Shown: piece after piece, positions 3,704-64,000 of the stretch
Position numbering within the stretch: the first letter of the stretch is position 1
Layout: each line of letters opens with the position of its first letter
NCBI GenBank assembly: GCA_003344405.1
Contig: NOWV01000173.1
Location: 1-64,000 of the forward strand
Length of the DNA: 64,000 nucleotides
Reading direction: 5' to 3'
DNA from: Trichoplax sp. H2
Taxonomy: Eukaryota
Notes under the pieces: generated by a model
What the model saw: the letters and a program-made list of their open reading frames with translations, nothing else
What the model was told of the DNA's origin: nothing
Databases searched by the model: none
Translations under genes and position numbers: made by a program

Positions 3704-4324
3704 ACAGTGTTATATACTACATTAGAGTAGAAATATCTATGTTAGGATAATTCTGTTAGCCTATCCTTATTTAGTTAACTTCTAATTTGGACATACTGTG
3801 TTTTAATATAGCACTGACTTTTTATGACAATGAAACATATACACATACTGAAATTAATAGTTATAATAGGGAATACAAATCATCTACTTACAGTTCGAAT
3901 CATTGTGATTGTAACTTAATAGTAGATTGTAAATTATCGAGGAAATATTCCGTGATAGAACATATCGTAATCTGATTATTCTGTATTAGCCATCAGATGT
4001 CTATGTTCGTAAATACTGTTGTCTGCATTAAGGAACCAGTAGCTAAAATTAATATCTAATTCAGTAAATGATTCCAAAGTTAATCGTACTAACTATGATT
4101 CATGACCTATTGAGGAAGAGTACATAAATGCAGCATAATATGTAATAAAGTGAATTCTTAAACTTAGTGTTTAACGTAATATACGAGGCATCTAAGTCTT
4201 TGTGTAGTCTGCTAGTAGAGCAAAAGTGTTTGTGATAGTGCAGATATCGTTCCTTGATACGTGGTTCAAGGAATTGACTTATTGATCGTACCTTACGTTA
4301 TCTTGTTGCAAAGCTGTTTTGTGA
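3704..4324. repeat. Left arm of a ~620-bp inverted repeat
   Basis: Its reverse complement matches ~6539-7552 with scattered substitutions. ORFs 3787+ and 6804- encode near-identical peptides (MDILCFNIALTFYD..). Confidence 0.92.
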
Positions 4325-5202
4325 CATAAAGTAACATCCATATTTCAAGACCAAAATATAAGAATCCATAGCATCGAGCCTTATTAACTCTTAGAGATGT
4401 TTAGTTATTGCATTAGCATGACATAAGCTAAGGTGATTTGACATATTCTCTAAAAGTAGCAACTACTAAGGCTGTTGAAAGAATAACGATTAGGTTAATT
4501 AATTAATTAATCTACAAGATTCCAACTCAATAAAGTAAAAACTACAGATCGGTATAATAAAAATTATTGAAAAAATATTGAAATAATGTGCGTCAAGATA
4601 ATATTTAAAGTCAACTCTAATAAAGGATTTAGTAAAATATCTATATGAACTTAGTTCATCGATATAGCTTAGAAAATCAAATTAGCAACTGCAGTGAACG
4701 GTTGAATATCAAATATTAGTACAACGATAATAAAATTAATAAATTAGGTTTCTTTTGGCACTCCAAAAATTTACTTAAGTTACCCTTAAGTCATATCAAT
4801 CACCCTACATAAATTTGAATAACTTACTAGCATTATGAGTATGATGGAGGATTCGAAGAGTCAGCGGCTGCGGACTTAGTAGCCATCCACAGAAATTATG
4901 CAAGCGGTTTTAATAAAAAAGGATGCTTTATTGTAGATGTTAGTGAAGGTAAAATGCGGTAGTTACGGCAGATCAGCATGTAAGCTATGGCGAAGTAGCA
5001 TGAGGAAGTACTACAACTGCGATTAGTGCAACTGACAAATTTGAGGCAGAAATCATCAGTATTTATAGATTAAGAAATAGAACGCATGTAGAGAACAGGA
5101 TTATAGAATTCGATATGACATCTACCGTAAACAGACAGAGTAATAGCAAATGATTGTAGAAAACAGCAAAGACCGTAGGTGCTATAAATAACTAAACATA
5201 AT

Positions 5203-5238: not shown

Positions 5239-6538
5239 TATAGTAGAAATAGACTCTAAAACTATGTACACTCGGTAAAATACAAAATGTCTATATTTAA
5301 GAATATGCTAAGGACTATAGTGAAGTCTAAATATACTACAATGAGTATGTAAAACGATCTTTCCGACTTATCAGTGGATGTGAATTTTGCAGCTTAGTTT
5401 TGATAAATTTTAAAATTTTTCTTTGGATTTATAGAAAAAATATACGTACTAAAGTCATTTATGGATTCCATGATGGTGGTCTTCATACAAAGTCATTTGA
5501 TATCAGCAGCTAAGTGTAATAAATTAAAATGAAGGTTTTCTTACTGGAAAGAATATGAATGATTAATAAGTATTTAATATTTGCAAAATAATTATTCGGA
5601 CGTACCGTCTCGTAATATATATTAATGTACTACTTGCTTAGCACCGAAAAACTTGATGCGAGTATTTAAGGAGCTCAAACCATCAAGTAAAATCGTTGTA
5701 CATTCTAGTTGTATGGGAGGGATAGTAGCTGTTTAGAGGTTTATGGATATCTTATAGACAGTATTTATCTCAGATTAAAATCGCTAAAGATGTTGTCAGA
5801 TCTTAACTTTTTCTGTGCAGGGTAATTCTGATGTCACTAATACAACTATTAATTTCAACTAGTGAAACTCTCTAAACTCTAGTAAATAGAATGCATAATG
5901 TTGTAGTCTTCTTAACTATGTAGTTTTCTAAAGCAACATCTGTCAATTTCTTATTCTTTTACTACTCCAAGAATACTATAGTTAACGAACAATGTAACTT
6001 ATAATCTTTATCTTGTTATCCTTAATCGTAATATGCTGAACGATAAATAGTTTTATTAGATTGGGTAGATGATCGAACCACTTTGATGACAACGATTGCG
6101 TAGTAAAGAGACCGTGATAAGAAAAAGTAATTAATTTATTATTGTAATAGTCATAGACTGCTAAACTTTAACCCATGCAATAGTATTCTAGTCGATCCCT
6201 CGCTCATTATACTTTCTTACTGTTAATAGTAGAAATTTTAAACGCTCTGCTCGTAATACCCATCATAAAGGCGCTATGCCTTTAGGCTATCGTTACTTTA
6301 ACTTTCCTTTATTTTTCTGCTAATAACCAATGCAGTATGTTTTTTCGTGCACTAAAAAGTCCGAGGACTACGTGTGTTGGTTTAGGATTAGGGACGAGTT
6401 CGGAAGCAGGTTGTGGAAAATTTAAGATTTAGTTTCAGTCAGGATATTACTGCTTGTTTTAGCATCAGAGAGGCCATTTGCATTCTCTACATTGTGCACT
6501 GGCAGCGTATAAATTGCCCATTTCTCATTAGATAGTTG

Positions 6539-7552
6539 CCACAAAACAGATTTGCAACAAGATAACGTCATGTATGATCTATAAGTCAATTCCTTGAACC
6601 ATGTATCAAGGAACGATATCTGTACTATCAGAAACACTTTTGCTCTACTAGCAGACTACACAAAGACTTAGACGGCTCGTATTTTACGTTAAACACTAAG
6701 TTTAAGAATTCACTTTATTACACGATGTACTGCATTAATATACTCTTCCTCAATAGTTCGTGAGTCATAGTTAGTACGATTAACTTTGGAATCATTTACT
6801 GAATTAGATATTAATTTTAGCTACTGGTTCCTTAATGCAGACAACAGTATTTACGAGCATAGATATCTGATCGCTAATAATCACAATGATTCGAACTGTA
6901 AGTAGGTGATTTGTATTTCTATTGTAACTATTAATTTCAGTATGTGTATATGTTTCACTATCATAAAAAGTCAGTGCTATATTAAAACACAGTATATCCA
7001 CATTAGAAGTTAACTAAATAAGGATAGGATAACAGAATTATCCTAACATAGATATTTCTACTCNNNNNNNNNNNNNNNNNNNNACACTAAGTTTAAGAAT
7101 TCACTTTATTACACGATGTACTGCATTAATATACTCTTCCTCAATAGTTCGTGAGTCATAGTTAGTACGATTAACTTTGGAATCATTTACTGAATTAGAT
7201 ATTAATTTTAGCTACTGCTTCCTTAATGCAGACAACAGTATTTACGAGCATAGATATCTGATCGCTAATACAGAATAGTCAGATTACGATATGTTCTATC
7301 ACGGAACATTTCCACGATAATTTACAATCTATCATAAGTAAGTTATAATCACAATGATTCGAACTGTAAGTAGGTGATTTGTATTCCTATTGTAACTATT
7401 AATTTCAGTATGTGTATATGTTTCACTATCATAAAAAGTCAGTGCTATATTAAAACACAGTATATCCACATTAGAAGTTAACTAAATAAGGATAGGATAA
7501 CAGAATTATCCTAACATAGATATTTCTACTCTAATACAGTATATAACACTGT
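6539..7552. repeat. Right arm of the inverted repeat, internally duplicated across a 20-N gap (7064-7083)
   Basis: 6693-7063 is repeated at 7084-7531, and the first copy lacks ~77 bp that is present in the second copy and in the left arm. Confidence 0.9.
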
Positions 7553-54913: not shown

Positions 54914-57900
54914 GTAAGTCTTGTAGTTTTCTCAATAATTGGTACTTCGCTTAGTATTCAGTTTCTATAGTGCTAAAAAATAGTCGAAATTCTAGGTTAA
55001 TAAATTATTTTTGTAAATCGTATAGTTATAGTAACGGAAATCAAGATGTAAAACGTCAAAGTTCATATATCAGATTAAACAGTAGAAAATAGTTGTTCGA
55101 TTTCTATGCCGCACATGTAAGGAAATTAGTGCAAATTGAATTTAATAGGAAATAATTATGCTGATTCATCTGATTTTATTACCTTTCCAGCTAGATGATA
55201 CATTGGTGTAACAATTGGAAGTGCTTTCCGAGGCTACATTAATTATATTTATCGGTAGTTACCATAAAAGATATAGTGAATATTCAGTGATTAATTCTAT
55301 ATTATTGTTTAAAGCTAATATCTCAGAAATTACTACAGAAATATAGACTTTAAAGTTAATTCGCTTTTAGATTAACTATAGTCATTGCTACTGTAATTAA
55401 TCTTGTAGTAGAAGCAAATTCGATAACTTTTGACTTAAATCTAAACTGGATCAACCTAAATAAATATAATGAAATGGGTTTACAACAGTACCGGAGTTGA
55501 AAATTGCCCTAGCAAAGAATTATAGAATGCTCTTGTAATAGCCTAAATGTTGTATCTATGTTCACTATAAATCCAGATCGCAAAGATTAGGTGTTGATTT
55601 ACATACTTACTCTGATTACGGAAGGCAATTACTCACGTAGGAATCTAAGGAAGTTTCTACTAGATAAGAAGAACCAAGATTCAGATATACTACTACTAAA
55701 CCATAATTATTTCCAAATGTTGAACGAATTGGAAATGCTATTATTAACTTAAATAGGAAAACCTGACGTTGATGTCAATTTTTTAAGACAACTGCAGATC
55801 TTTAAGAAAGACTATTCTGATTTATACAAAACTATGGGATCGACAATGCGATTTATTATGGAATGGATATGTACATATATGCAATGATCGAATGCAATGA
55901 TTTGATTATCGTATGGTTATTATACGGATATACATATACTAAAACTACCAATACACTGCAAGGCTTATACACTAAATCGCTATTCAATCGTCATTCAATA
56001 CAAATTACCGTTACTATTCAACTCTACTCTTCTCTACTTCTCTCTTACTATACCTCAATACTATTCTACAAGAGGAGAATAGAATATTTTGTAGCCTTTT
56101 ACAGTTTAGTAAGAGAGACCGGATCATTTTTATTTATTTTATTTTGCTCATTCATGATAGACGATCAAATGCATGCAACCAGATAATGAAAATCCAATCC
56201 CAAGGTTTGTTGTTGTACTGTATGAGGTTGTAATTGCTAAAGTAACAGTAATAAAAAGTAAAAAGCGTTTATTAACGAAATATTGAACTTATACACCATT
56301 GCCAATTGTACTATGAGTGGAAGCAAAGCTTTGAAAGAACAATTCGTGGGTGATGCTATTTACATCGAAATCATCGACAACATTGAAGATAGCGATCAAT
56401 ACGATTGCAGTTTTATAACTAGAAGCGGTTACATTGACCTCAACGAAGTTGAGTTAATGACTGTGAACATCATTATCTACCAATGAATGATTTTACGATA
56501 CCTGTGATGTATCGAAAAAGTTATCATGACGGTCAATCACTTACAGTATATCAGTTACTCTTTCTTTACGTTTACAACCCTCTTTTTTCATGAATCGTTT
56601 CAACTTTGACAGTTTAATTAAGTGAAGGCAAATAGCGGGTAAAACTTGGCCGTTTGCTGCACAGCTTTGCAAGGACAGTCTATTAATATACTGTAGTTCA
56701 TGATTTTACCCTAAAAAATAAATTGTTACTGAATGATATACGCGTATGCAAAATTCAAATGTTACCATGATACACTATTCCCTTTGCCCCTCAACCATTA
56801 AGAAAATAAGATTGATCAATATACAGCACACTTTTCAATGCGCTAATCTGTGTCTAAAACGAAGTGAATACAGTAATCTGTTCAGTACCCAATGAATTTA
56901 TTATGGTGTAAACAATGTGTGAAATAAATCTGTTTTATCCTACAGCATTAAGGAAGATTGATCTGAGTATAGGACAACATGAGCGGAATACTAATATCCA
57001 ATTAATTTATGATGGTGCAAATGGATGGCGGAAAATAGATCAATTGTATCCTACAGGTGCGCTACAACATTAAAATTAGTTAATATTCAATGTCTAGAAG
57101 GAAACATGAGATACATTAGGTATAAACTGGATTGATGATACTACAAACACATCTTTCTTAAGTATGGTATTTTGTACGCTGCCGTATTCCATATAATAAT
57201 TTAAAGTCTTGATGAATTTTCAAGATACGATGGAAGCCGAAATCTTGTGCTGTACGGCCACATAATGCATATCCAAAATTAACAATATTGATTTGAAATT
57301 TACTGTCGGTTAGTAGCGAACTTTGCATCCCAATGAGCTCACTAGGAAAAGCTAGAAAGCATTTTAAGTGTTTGAGAGTTTTTATAGGGATTAATGCTAA
57401 CGTCATGAAAGCAAAAGGAACAGAATTAAAATAGAATAGAAAGAAACAGCTTTAATGTGTCCCATTATAATTTTTAGTAATTATAACTTGAACTAGGCAT
57501 GGAATAGACTGAATTTAGTGATTTTAAATTGTTTCTATTTTATTGTCTTTAAGCTAAAATTTAAATAATGTACCAGAACCAGCTAAAATGCCTGAGGTAA
57601 AGTTGTAGCCAGAAAATCTGATATTGGATACGATGCATATTAGAGATCTAAAATTTCAGTTATTTACTTTATCATGGACTACCGTATGTGATGCATCCTA
57701 GTATATCTTTAATTTCTTGCTTTATCTGAGAGTACTTTGCACAGCTTAAAGATTTGACGTGTTTTTTCAGATAAATCCGGCCTCTCAATAATTAAGCTAC
57801 GTCAATAGCTGCTATAGAATAAAATCATATTACGGTAAGACAACAAATAGCCGCATAATAGCATTAAATATTTATGACTAAGGCCTAAAAGTCGTCATGT

Positions 57901-58777
57901 TAGAAAAAAAATTCTTGCTCTCAATTCTTTTGTTATCTAGTAGACCTTGCTAATCTCTTTGGTATTTCTCTCTAGTTGAGGCTATTGTTTTATCGGTAAT
58001 TAATAACTGTATAACGGTAGTTTATACAGTTACCTATAGATTAGCTTTCTCCATCTAACACTTGCAGAATTGATAATGAAATTTTAGGATGATTTTTACT
58101 GTATATACGATTTTCTGCATTCTATTTTATCCCAAACCATATTAGATTAAATATACTACTATAATACTAACGTAAATCTAATATAATCCTCTTCTTAATA
58201 CAAATTGTTTATCGTAACTAAAAACTAGCGGTGCTCACGCATATTAAGGTTATCAGGCTGTAGCTCCATCTAATAGTTTAATTATTCCTTAGATTTAATT
58301 AATTTTCACCTATTGCCTTAAATCTATATTATGGCATAGCGTAATAGCCGCATACATTTAATTTCATAGAACGATTATTATGATTATTCCGCTAATTACA
58401 GGCATAATTGAAATCATCTTTGCACTAGAACTTGTAAATTATAAATTATACCGTTAATTACAGTAACAATTTTCATAGAATGTCATCGAATCGTCGTACT
58501 TGTTTGGTAATACTGCAGTATCCAATAATATATAGGTAATCTTTACTTCTGTGAATGTGAAGAGAAAACTTAATTAACTCATTTGCATTCAAGTAGAAAT
58601 GAGAGAGCATGTACAAATACTGCTGAAGATTGAAACTACTATTTATCACAACAGCACCCACGCATATCCCAAAGGTCGTAGCTGAATGCGTACAGTAAAT
58701 TCTTCCATTTCAATTATTGAAAAACTCTGAATAGTAAGAACTAATTCCGTTAGCTAACTTGGTCAAACAACAAAATT

Positions 58778-61354
58778 ATGGCTTCTAGTACAAGTGGCAA
58801 AATTCAAACAACCTGCGAAACGAATAGCCTATGGGAGAATAATGCTTTGTATGATTCGGATTATAGCGAAATGAGCGATATCGATCTCAACTCACAGTAT
58901 GTCGATATCTGGCATGAAAAAGAAGTCTATAACTACGGTTTACTGGACGATATGGCAGTAACAGATATCGAAGACAACGATGAAAATAATTTTTATACTC
59001 CACGTGTGGAGCATACGTCGCCACTGCAATTTCTAGACTATACTAATATTTGGCAGCCGGCTAAAAATGCTCGACCAATGCCGCATAGTTTCAGAGGTGA
59101 TCACGGCTTAACCGTAGATACTACTGGCTTCCATCCACGAGATTACTTTAGGCTATTTGTTACCGAAGATTTGCTAACCTATTTTGTAGCAGAAACAAAC
59201 TTATTTGCTTTACAGTATCTGCGCGATTATCCGAAAACATCCAAGTTCGCTAAACTTCCGAGCTGGATGCCCACTAACGTAGCTGAAATGAAAAAGTTTC
59301 TTGGCTTGTTATTGTTGATGGGTATCATTCGAAAGCCATATATTAGCCATTACTGGTTTACGGATCCTTTATATGATACACCAATCTTTCGATCGGTTAT
59401 GACTTGTCATCGTTTTCAATTGCTTTTAAAATTTTTCCACCTAAACGATAATGATAACATGCCAGACAAGACTGATCCTAATCATGATCGCCTGTATAAA
59501 GTAAGACCACTAATAGATCATCTATTCGAATATTTTCAAGCAGTTTATGTCGTGGAACAGAATTTGGCAATCGATGAATCTTTTCTTGTCTGGAAAAAAA
59601 GGCTCCAACTTCAAGATTTTCGCTTTAAACGTACCCGCTTCGGAATCAAACTAATTCGGCTCTGCGAATGCAGTACTGGATACACTTTTCGATTTAAGTT
59701 ATACGTCAATGATAAAGATCCAACTGAGTGCTTAAAGCAAATACTACCTATTCATTCTGAGAACTTTAATAAAGCTGAAAAGCTGGCTATATTTCTGTTG
59801 CTACCTCTACTAGACCAGGGCTACAATATTTACATGGACAATAACCGATTATCGCTCGATTTATGTTCATTCCTGTACCGACGTAAAACTAATGCTTGTG
59901 GCATGCTAAATTCCAGCAAAATGCCTGAAATAATTCGCGGTGTAAGCACTGCATTTAAATCAACCTCTGCCTATCGATCAGGCCCTATTCTTTGCTTAAA
60001 GCAAATGGATAGAATACCTCTCTATATGCTAACCACCATTCATGATGAGCAGATAGCTGAAGAACTTAAAGAAAGTGACAAAGCATATGGTCAATATCGT
60101 CAAGGAAGGCCTTCGGCGATGCTTTGCTATATGAAAAATATGAGGAATATAGACAAGCAGGATCAGGTAAGTAAGCATTCTTACGCATTATAGGATGCTG
60201 GTAATTATCATCTAGGTCTTAATGTAAAACATTTAATGCATCTTACCCACTGTCTATTGTAAAATCTTAATCGATTATCCTATTAATGCGTGTTCCAGTC
60301 TAGCTTTGAATATCTTAGATTTAAGATCCAGAAGTGAAATGCAATATATTTAATTCAAGTCTGAATACAACGACAACAGTTAATTTTAATATGAAACTTG
60401 TTTAGAAGTCTACTGAGACACTAGATAAATAGGCAAATGAGCATATTACAAGAGTATAGGCAGAGTTTTAGAAAATTTATAGTAAATCTTTAACTGAAAC
60501 ATTCTTGAAATAGCCTTTGATACCGCTTATCCACTGCAATATTTACTCTTATACTTTAGAAATACCCGGCATTTTCATCATATACTTTAAAATTCAAATA
60601 ATTCTGGGAAAGTTAAGGGTCCTCAAGAGTTGAAAATGGAATCGATTTATATTACCTGTATTCTGTAATCGGGGTTTATCGCTACTTTCAAATTGCGTTT
60701 ATTTTTAAATCTCCTGTATTTTAAAATAAGTGAATCGCAGTCAGCTTAAATTACAATTTATAACTAATAACCATATACTCATATTATCCCGGAATATTAC
60801 ACAACAGGTGTTAGTTATTTGTCATCTACTAACCTACTGCAATTCATGATAGATGATAAAAGCGTGCAGTGCTACTAGAAGCACGTTCAAGTGGTATAAA
60901 TCATTGGCATTATTCTTACTTCAAATCAGTTTACTAAATGCCTTTATAATTTATCGAAAAGACCAACCAAAGTCACGCAAGTCGTTCTTGGAGTTTCAGC
61001 ACGACGTAATTGATTTTTTATCAAAATAGGAACTGATATTGACATTGCTTACTACTATATATATCAGCTTGGATTATATTTCATTTATAGGTTTTAAGTG
61101 ATTACTTATTTGGAGACTTGGAGCCACAGCTTGCTAAGAGAGATACCGTTATCAGACTGAGTGGTAAACATTACTTAGTTAAATTCGAACGTAGGTCGAA
61201 ATCAAAAAAGCCATATCCACTCTGCCAAGTTTGCCTGAAGAAAAAAATAACACTGGAAGTAACTACCCTTTGCCCTGTTTGTCCTAAAAAACCTGGCCTA
61301 TGCATGGATCCTTGCTTTCTAAAATTTCATTCAAAACTAAAATATTGGATTTAA
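58778..61354 (+). CDS. PGBD4-like: piggyBac transposase-derived protein (DDE_Tnp_1_7 type + C-terminal Cys-rich domain), 3 exons, ~601 aa
   Basis: Exons 58778-60166, 60853-61005, 61091-61354, both introns phase 0. Motifs: acidic N-terminus; EMKKFLGLLLLMG; YW; DRLYKVRPL; IDES; FGIK; YMDN; IDKQDQM; KWYK..LLNAFIIY; LEF; CQVC..CPVC..LC..PCF..FH. Confidence 0.92.
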
Positions 61355-61842
61355 GTTGAACCAGAATGTTGCTTGGAACTCAAAGTTATAATTAATACAA
61401 GTATTTTAAAAATTGTTTTTTCTTGGTCTCCGATTCGATTCTTAACGGTATCCAGAGTTTTATTGTTGTGAAATATCTTGATGAAAGAGCATTTAGAGTA
61501 GCATTTTCGTGATTTATCATCGATAGTATTTCTAGTTTGATCTTGTAGCTGTACCTAAATTATGTTAGTAAAAATTTAAATCTCTAAATGTGGTATAAAA
61601 TTACATAGTTAAACGAATTTGATAGTGTCCATATTTTAGAGTGATATTAGGAAATGAATTTGGCAAACAGGCCACTATCTCCAGCTAGTATAAGAATTTC
61701 GTATTATTTAAATGTATTCGTTGATGGAATGATGATTTTTAGAGAATCCGTTATTGTGTCGATAAATTATTGCACATTTGACGAGCCATTTCTGAATACT
61801 TTTCGTATTGATTGTCAACAACAAAAAGTATTACATGCAGTA

Positions 61843-61950
61843 ATGAAAATTTTTCATCCCAATTTCTATGTTAATAAGCGTAAAGCGTGCATACGTACAT
61901 TAGCGATATTATTTGCAATTTTTGGAGTAATTTATACTTTCTGGGAACAG
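61843..61950 (+). CDS. Possible first coding exon of a type II membrane (signal-anchor) protein; downstream exons not resolved, possibly decayed
   Basis: MKIFHPNFYVNKRKACIRTLAILFAIFGVIYTFWEQ has a basic patch then a hydrophobic helix, and ends at a good cag/gtatgt donor. Confidence 0.35.
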
Positions 61951-64000
61951 GTATGTCGCAAATATCTAGAAAGATTTGTCTTTTGATAATAAACACCTTT
62001 TGCCCTCATTTCTTATAATGGGTTGCTATGTTAAGGCGAGCTCTTTGCCATGGCCTTATACTTAAAGCTAAGCTAGGTGATTAGGGCTATTAATAATTAT
62101 TGTTTCAAGAAGATTTATGACAATCATTCACGTGAGTTTAACTACATTGCGGTGCTTTTATTAGAATGGTTAAAATTTCGCTTACTAGAGATATATCAAG
62201 AAAATCTATAACCTATTAAGGTGATCATACCCGATTTTGCTGTTTAGTTTGTTCTCAACAGTTTGCTTTACTAAATCCTGACTATAATTGCAAACTATAT
62301 GTATAAATCCATCCATAATTTCTTTCAACTGATTCATTCTAAATCATGCTAAATGAAATTGATTAATTGATCTCATACAGCTTCTATCAGTTTCATTCTC
62401 TAATCGAATCGAAAATGGAAAATTAAAGATATAACCGAAAATATTTCTCAGTTACTGTTTATAATAACAACAATTGACTGCTGGCAGAGTAGAAAATGTA
62501 GCATTCAACATGTTTTGATAAATTTAGATACATAATAATGGGATAATTATTGTCATAAATTTTATTAAAAATATACCGTTAAAACCCCTGCCGGTAAGTG
62601 ATACTGTAATATGCAACGCCGAGTAATATATTAATTTTTATAAATTATTCTGTTATGTATTGAAATATTCACATAATAAACTTTTCCATTTATATCCTTT
62701 TTCTCGACGGCTCCAGTATCTCGGTTCCCTCTGTGTTAGTCAATACTAAATACTATAAGGCCATCAGCTTAGGCGGTTGCGGGTTTAATAAATTAATTTA
62801 GCCATTATTCATATACTATAGAATATCGTAACTCTATTAATTCCGTTATTATCTTCTGGCCAATAAGAGCGCTGTAATGGCTTAAAGTTACGCCCATTCC
62901 TTAAGCGATTACTATTTCTGTATTTATAATGATATGAGCCTTCTTCCGTTAATATTTTAGTGTGACAATCATCTGACCTGACTACATTGTAGCTAAAGTA
63001 CTTCTCTACTTAGTATACTAAAGTCTAGAAATTATGAACAAAATTGTCCCAGTTGGTGCTAGAAGTATTAAAGTACAGTCATTTAAAAGCATTTTCTAAT
63101 CGATTGGTAATGATATCAACAGATGTAAAACATACCTTAATCTTTTGCTTGATTTCCTTATAAGATCGTTGCAAATTTTGAGACGGATCTATTGTAGTAA
63201 AATGTCATTCAAGATATTTGAGTCATGATTTTCTACTGCAAAATTAACGTACTTGTGCTGGTAAGTTATTCAAATAAGTACTACCAATCTTTTACTCTTA
63301 ATATATAAATTAGATTTTTAATGACTAGTATTGAATGATGTTTATGCTATCATCCAAAATAGAATATTAACATTCAAGATTGAGTATTTCAGTTTTACGT
63401 TATAATAAGTTTGATCTAAAGTTTCATCAGTTAGTACTAAATATAAGCCCTTCACTAGATTATAAGAGTCATAACACGATAGTATGGAGTAAAGGATTGA
63501 TATTACATGCTTTAAGTAACTAACTGCAGTTTATACAGCCGTAATTAGAACTTAAACGATTTTACTATTTGCCAGTAGATGAAACTTTACGATAGTTGTT
63601 CCGGTGTATAAATATGAGTAGTTACAGCAGTTTTCTTAGCCACCGTTAGTGCAGCTATTGAACAGACTATGTCGTAGGAAACGATCATAAGTCTATTTAT
63701 GTTCTGTCTATTTGATTAATCGATGATTGCTAGTATACAGACAATATCAGTTATATAACGTAAAATACTTATGATCAAAAATACTTTAATATAATCTACT
63801 CTATGCACCATGAAGGTAGTTTTTCTCTAGTCTTGATCCTTCTATCATTAAATAGCTATTAACAATTTACTCTATTGAAGGCATAAAACGTGTAATGTGA
63901 TTAACGCTACTCAAATTTTTTTATTACAGCCTTGGATTTAATGATGCCATAGCTTTAATAAATTTCTAAATCAAATCTTCCTTGCAGGTCTCGGTTCTAT

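Follow-up and report, generated by a model that had tools for sequence, protein, structure and literature searches.

The stretch of DNA that we analysed (the window) comprises 64,000 nt of the Trichoplax sp. H2 genome and carries a piggyBac gene among exons for SRCR, EGF, Ig, and CUB domains. Joining three exons yields an open frame of 601 aa (463 + 51 + 87 codons plus stop), in agreement with the intact three-exon frame of about that length in the original prediction (Table 1). Because 18 GT-AG combinations leave the frame open, the open frame alone does not set the junctions; these were set by homology, since PF13843 spans junction 1 (profile positions 2-317 in exon 1, then 319-349 in exon 2) and two paralogues are split at identical codons. 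Among database proteins of 254-811 aa there was no ~100% match to the gene, and it may be unannotated.

Table 1. Coordinates of the piggyBac gene, its parts, and the block shared with its duplicate
Feature	Coordinates	Strand	Content and basis
Exon 1	58778..60166	+	463 codons: acidic N-terminus, N-terminal part of dimerisation/DNA-binding domain, RNase H-like core, insertion domain; ORF, PF13843 (E 1.2e-58), AlphaFold/Foldseek
Acidic N-terminal segment, residues 19-67	58832..58978	+	Identity to P0001/P0053; pLDDT
D266, Asp1 position	59573..59575	+	Alignment; Asn in both orthologues
Remodelled omega loop	59594..59650	+	G274K, Q280D, P282R; one residue shorter than in piggyBac/piggyBat; alignment
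D354, Asp2 position	59837..59839	+	Alignment; Asn in both orthologues
D459 (Asp3) to D462	60152..60163	+	Present in orthologues; context YMKNMRNID, not YNxxMGGVD
Intron 1	60167..60852	+	686 nt, phase 0, GT-AG; codon position common to paralogues C158 and C212:85 kb
Exon 2	60853..61005	+	51 codons: end of PF13843 domain (KWY helix region); profile 319-349 (E 0.026 alone), paralogue exon alignment
Intron 2	61006..61090	+	85 nt, phase 0, GT-AG; codon position common to both paralogues
Exon 3	61091..61354	+	Linker and cysteine-rich domain; PF13842 (E 3.3e-6)
Block duplicated on contig C325	56055..60642	.	93.7% nt; copy comprises flanks and part of intron 1, without exons 2-3, broken; neutral control

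Protein fold and genomic neighbourhood

The protein combines a DDE_Tnp_1_7 core of piggyBac fold with a C-terminal cysteine-rich domain, placing it in the piggyBac superfamily. The best Foldseek matches to the AlphaFold model of exon 1 (pLDDT 80.9) are piggyBat and Trichoplusia ni piggyBac (PDB 9c0f and 6x67; E 2e-24 and 2e-17), and the aspartates predicted at IDES, YMDN, and NIDKQD (D266, D354, and D459) align with piggyBat D237, D309, and D413. Both transposases share the fold and the aligned triad with the window protein, but they are mobile and have terminal inverted repeats (TIRs), whereas several active-site neighbours are replaced in the window protein; the altered flanking motifs noticed in the sequence (GGVD to RNID, GTVRxNR to GMLNSSK, and KGR..QY to KKR..DF) are real by alignment. 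The predicted cysteine-rich domain is likewise present in exon 3, with all eight candidate zinc ligands (H541, C559, C562, C575, C578, C585, C589, and H594), which are conserved in the H2 genes. The conserved R568 of this domain is T in the Trichoplax gene, and searching PDB sequences with exon 3 yielded no genuine match.

The segment upstream of the gene is multi-copy. At least five further copies of window positions 56055-57523 exist at 91-94% identity (C325, C853, C623, C628, and C539); past this unit, C325 carries ~4.9 kb that is not in the window and that contains a CARD exon and a Roc-COR ORF of 729 aa, and C853, C623, and C539 continue into the same stretch over the length compared. Positions 55831-56064 form a 234-bp unit that is found in arrays of ~500-bp spacing on C636 and C664 and as single copies on other contigs. 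Elsewhere in the window, inverted and direct duplications (3704-4326 and 6537-7552; 93-99%) surround a 20-N gap at 7064-7083 and are possibly a small repeat or an assembly artefact. Downstream, the + strand of C212:65000-80000 contains many successive SRCR and EGF exons and, after them, Ig exons, which make up a large receptor-like gene lying between two piggyBac genes. The second of these, P0006, is directly followed by a tandem array of ~59-bp units (C212:88850-92000) and then by IFT140 exons on the - strand (~96-102 kb). We found no evidence at the locus for a functional tie between the piggyBac gene and the neighbouring SRCR/EGF/Ig receptor genes.

Copy number, duplicates, and purifying selection

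The absence of TIRs, first judged by eye, was borne out by searching: within 4 kb to either side, no TTAA-flanked inverted match is better than 12/16, a chance level equalled by 24 of 60 shuffles, and a repeat search over 55-64 kb returned no terminal pair around the gene. The TIR search at three paralogues was also negative. Mobile PBLEs are recognised by TTAA-flanked TIRs and by dispersed, multi-copy, element-bounded homology; neither was found for this gene, which has one full copy.

Searching the 94.9-Mb assembly, we found at least six PF13843 loci and at least three PF13842 loci, both counts being lower bounds. The PF13843 loci are the window gene, P0006, C158, C330, the broken duplicate on C325, and a decayed fragment on C221 (101679-102170; other clade, three stops); identity to the window gene is 45% for P0006, 41% for C158, and 24% for C330. 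P0006 is a paralogue with a canonical triad 24 kb downstream (C212:85388-88316); it is without TIRs and shares the first two introns, both of which follow the same codons as in the window gene. The sister paralogue at C158:209568-212034 encodes 570 aa, has the same two introns, and has lost Asp1 and Asp3 while keeping the zinc domain; it is a second domesticated piggyBac gene. The C330 gene (C330:353976-355559; P0302, 646 aa), which is highly divergent, has its core in one exon, and is without Asp1, Asp3, and the cysteine-rich domain, probably stems from an older domestication or a separate one.

Exons 2-3 and the 3' flank of the window gene occur once in the genome, and elsewhere only broken 5' duplicates were found, making it single-copy, as is expected of PGBD genes, within counts that are lower bounds. 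Near-identical dispersed copies with TIRs, which would have spoken against domestication, were not found in these searches. Besides the C325 copy there is a second partial duplicate on C853; both are segmental duplications and not transpositions, because each takes in kilobases of flanking sequence and breaks off within the gene. Homology to C623, C539, and C628 stops at about 57523, and the TTAA at 57524 was considered as an insertion site; it was rejected, as these contigs do not resume downstream of the gene and TTAA occurs about every 77 bp. In the C325 duplicate, window position 60642 is joined to C212:68577, an SRCR exon, and the public annotation P0004 (301 aa) is a piggyBac-SRCR fusion that skips stops, probably an annotation artefact.

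The C325 duplicate served as a neutral control in a selection test that covers exon 1 within one genome. Non-coding divergence between the two copies is 6.2%, and exon 1 of the duplicate has acquired two nonsense codons and three indels. With the orthologues described below as reference, the 33 codons that differ in amino acid divide into 21 duplicate-derived, 2 window-derived, and 10 unpolarised changes, placing 21 of the 23 polarisable changes on the duplicate side (binomial p=6.6e-5). There are 34 nonsynonymous differences against about 68 expected with both copies neutral, and pN/pS against the broken duplicate is 0.37, on the side of 1 by which purifying selection on PGBD genes is recognised (Ka/Ks < 1). 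The window copy is not merely slower to change at the DNA level, because it has 28 private non-coding changes versus 18 and 14. The window gene is under purifying selection, and the neutral evolution that would have counted against co-option was not seen. Read variants could not be used for dN/dS because 25 of the 32 listed sites checked match the C325 duplicate; a read piece of run X20 in exon 1 likewise has the deletion of this duplicate.

A locus of this kind could also be an old immobilised, intron-bearing transposon copy that was never domesticated, with horizontally shared elements resembling orthologues. Wang et al. (2010) listed it as a transposon remnant in a T. adhaerens survey whose available part reports 16 piggyBac matches, without a complete ORF and treated as inactive remnants (PMC2871265), and no splice joint occurs in the four read runs (of 24) compared with the gene, among which the runs guessed to be RNA (X17 and X18, "RNA?") cover introns and intergenic DNA and behave like DNA. 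The two introns, taken in the original prediction as a sign of domestication, are real, but their weight is below that implied, as intron 1 is seemingly present in other piggyBac-like genes. Among 179 homologues with the canonical third-Asp motif, 18 end within 45 residues of it, and the residue directly after the motif is V in 9/18 of these versus 20/157 of those reading on (p=0.0005); V is what a GT donor would give. This enrichment suggests that intron 1 possibly came from the ancestral element and may be older than domestication. The piggyBac-like proteins P0010, P0023, P0137, P0173, P0176, P0178, P0179, P0190, and P0291 stop shortly after GGVDxxDQ-V; they are possibly an intron-bearing piggyBac subfamily, a kind described as rare. 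Against an undomesticated remnant stand the nonsense codons and indels gained by the duplicate in ~6% divergence while the window frame is open, the 21:2 asymmetry of amino-acid changes, and the conservation of triad-less relatives that are unlikely to transpose by themselves. The comparison of duplicate and window sequences appears largely to refute such a remnant, and because we rate it as very unlikely, we regard the window gene as domesticated with high confidence.

Orthologues and the catalytic site

Two orthologues were found, P0001 (Logan) and P0053 (ENA); each shows 66% identity over exon 1, the part compared, and they match each other at 92%. Both come from 2-4 kb contigs and run into non-homologous sequence directly after DKQDQ; they appear to share intron 1, because the read-through starts at its codon. 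The C158 paralogue has a counterpart, P0171 (67% identical), that ends in the same way, and the C330 gene has one in P0303 (68%), whereas P0006 has no relative above 52% identity. That three orthologue pairs sit at equal distance suggests one speciation. The distance of the window-gene orthologues fits the mean protein distance between two placozoan genera given in the available part of PMC6067683 (28.3 ± 12.9%), and the source lineage of P0001 and P0053 is probably placozoan.

The locus is also present in very close relatives of H2, the only ones to which the positional agreement extends. Row 81 of supplement 2 of PMC2871265 (2,295 nt) is the window locus in T. adhaerens, with three differences, all synonymous, in ~400 nt compared by eye, and it lies on the same contig as row 80, the counterpart of P0006. 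Among the rows seen in that supplement, 78, 79, and 83 match C330, C158, and the broken duplicate, and the near-identical rows 80 and 85 both match P0006. Read run X4, which carries another species label, has depth in 30/30 bins of 57000-63000, and one of its pieces (1,319 nt) spans exons 2-3 together with the 3' flank.

In a tree of 29 rows (LG+G4, no mixture model; C330 and other distant rows left out), the window gene with P0001 and P0053 and the C158 group each form an orthologue group at 100/100, and the two groups join at 99/93, although their joining may be a long-branch effect. The C330 gene was a long branch in a first, broader tree. P0006 joins the degenerate clade at 92/95, a node that is not starred. 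The window gene, C158, and their orthologues form a clade of their own, with the curated PGBD genes outside the tree. Among sequences with a name, the closest are "PGBD4-like" and Uribo1 transposases (45% to Polypterus), and no named vertebrate match exceeds 46% identity.

The original prediction had stressed the retained DDD triad, which would hint at a possibly active, PiggyMac-like enzyme. This emphasis is unsupported: both orthologues have D266N and D354N and keep only Asp3 of the triad (N, N, D), together with D462, whereas the triad is kept in 119/121 canonical relatives that cover the three sites and would be conserved across orthologues in an active enzyme of the Pgm/Tpb2 type. We then scored 64 positions whose invariance reaches at least 85% across a set of 124 canonical homologues, each no shorter than 450 aa. 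Of these positions, 16 are lost in the window protein, while 120 canonical proteins covering those columns have lost a median of 3 and at most 15, figures that are favoured by the columns having been defined on the same canonical set; P0006 has lost 5. All 16 lost positions are also lost in both orthologues, 10 of them with the identical new residue, which argues that the remodelling is old and was then fixed. The losses include T376M and G311N (124/124 conserved in the canonical set) and, adjoining D459, N452M and G456R.

Both the omega loop and the YN..GGVD helix pair are remodelled; in T. ni piggyBac, these elements grip the transposon tip, the hairpin, and the TTAA target (PMC7351741). T. 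ni piggyBac N440, G444, and G445, hairpin- and end-contacting positions according to the available part of the same source, are M, R, and N in the window protein and in both orthologues. Other triads have decayed differently: C158 and P0171 are without Asp1 and Asp3, as are C330 and P0303. Given the Asn residues of the orthologues and the 16 lost positions, the retained DDD is probably misleading as a sign of activity, a reading drawn from alignments.

Motif decay is no proof of inactivity, because human PGBD5 is reported to be active despite a divergent catalytic domain (PMC6143343). A domesticated nuclease or recombinase resembling PGBD5 or PiggyMac could therefore still act on host sequences in Trichoplax, with catalysis lost only in the other lineage. 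The intact DDD and D462 of H2, an RNase H-like fold predicted with high confidence, the full set of candidate zinc ligands, and a shorter window branch in the tree (0.17 vs 0.38+) are all in keeping with such an enzyme; however, its hairpin- and end-contacting positions are replaced, its omega loop is remodelled, and the orthologues, which do without Asp1 and Asp2, show the same degree of conservation elsewhere. We consider continued activity unlikely.

Conservation outside the active site points to other parts of the protein. The helical dimerisation/DNA-binding domain is the best-conserved large part relative to the orthologues (132-136/167 identical; 79-81%). Residues 1-80 have pLDDT < 50, yet the acidic segment is identical to P0001 and P0053 at 36/49 and 35/49 positions (71-73%), versus 3-4/18 and 7-8/24 in the stretches flanking it; regions of this sort usually vary (PMC11707139, available part). 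We infer that this segment is a predicted-disordered, candidate protein-interaction motif. Casein-kinase-II sites in the N-terminus showed no consistent sharing with the orthologues, and an ESM Atlas search with residues 1-90 gave no match with a name.

Proposed role of the protein and comparison with known systems

Copy number, the orthologues, the lack of TIRs, and purifying selection measured against a broken duplicate all support the original prediction that the host has co-opted the gene. As to its function, we favour, with some reserve, a non-catalytic DNA- or chromatin-binding or scaffold protein arising from a placozoan domestication, a proposal based on sequence comparison. The source would have been a piggyBac-like transposase from the Uribo/PGBD4-like section of the superfamily, with domestication preceding the split between Trichoplax and the second, probably placozoan, lineage; a duplication would have produced the window gene and the C158 paralogue as sisters with the same two introns. 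Kept for a role without DNA cleavage, the protein would dimerise through its helical domain, may bind DNA or chromatin through this domain and the zinc-binding cysteine-rich domain, and may recruit partners through its conserved acidic N-terminus. It could regulate transcription or chromatin or serve as a scaffold, in the manner of PGBD1/2/3 or the PgmL proteins, with the three Asp residues of H2 as a remnant that has yet to erode.

Alternatively, the protein might be a non-catalytic subunit or inhibitor that heterodimerises with a canonical transposase, either P0006, as PgmL proteins do, or those of invading elements, as in KOBUTA. Precedents exist in PMC6143343 and in the available part of PMC5381638; the genome has one canonical gene (5/64 lost) and three triad-defective or degenerate intact ones, P0006 has both introns in common with the window gene and is placed beside the degenerate clade, and the dimerisation domain is well conserved. 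On the other hand, the three degenerate genes have one close relative each while P0006 has none, which means that the presumed partner is possibly absent from the other lineage, and no active piggyBac family was seen in the genome, either in our profile search of the assembly or in the available part of PMC2871265. A heterodimer of this kind seems to us distinctly unlikely. Most improbable is a complete Pgm/PgmL-like machine, with P0006 as the cutter and the window gene, C158, and C330 as non-catalytic subunits, driving programmed or frequent DNA rearrangement of, e.g., the SRCR/Ig/Roco receptor segments that are visibly duplicated around the locus; if true, one of the simplest animals would be editing its genome by means of transposases. 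Our literature search found no paper on programmed DNA elimination in placozoans.

The non-catalytic binding protein that we favour has parallels in known systems. Measured by the tests for PGBD genes in the available part of PMC5381638, the window gene shows most of the expected features and lacks those of a mobile element and of a conserved triad. PGBD1, PGBD2, PGBD3, and NeoPGBD are, like it, single-copy, TIR-less, and under purifying selection, with the DDD not conserved, and PGBD2 and PGBD3 also keep the cysteine-rich domain (PMC5381638 and PMC11707139, available parts). Unlike these vertebrate genes, which lie outside our trees, the window gene is of apparently independent, non-bilaterian origin and has two introns inside the transposase and a small paralogue family. 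The PGBD4/KOBUTA/Uribo group has a PF13842-type cysteine-rich domain like that of the window gene and contains its nearest named sequences, but KOBUTA and PGBD4 keep the DDD and have no introns (PMC5381638, Table 1); the "PGBD4" label on Trichoplax paralogues is an automatic name and does not denote orthology. Paramecium PiggyMac/PgmL1-5 and Tetrahymena Tpb2/Lia5 resemble the Trichoplax set in combining one canonical gene with several degenerate domesticated ones and in having introns. The differences are that Pgm and Tpb2 are 1,065-1,220 aa long versus 601 aa and that our searches of the second lineage did not turn up the canonical gene.

The available part of a survey of piggyBac domestication counts nine groups, in chordates and ciliates, and leaves Placozoa unmentioned (PMC5381638), and a paper on transposon-derived transcription factors does not mention piggyBac (PMC10027918). 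We found no description of domesticated piggyBac genes in placozoans in a search of openly accessible papers. The presence of at least three intact, conserved, catalytically degenerate piggyBac genes in a placozoan and a second lineage extends piggyBac domestication to a non-bilaterian animal and puts stages of active-site decay on view (DDD, NND, and xDS). It also makes it possible to ask, in a small animal that can be cultured, how genes derived from transposases are used after cutting stops, the same question that is posed by human PGBD1, 2, and 4.
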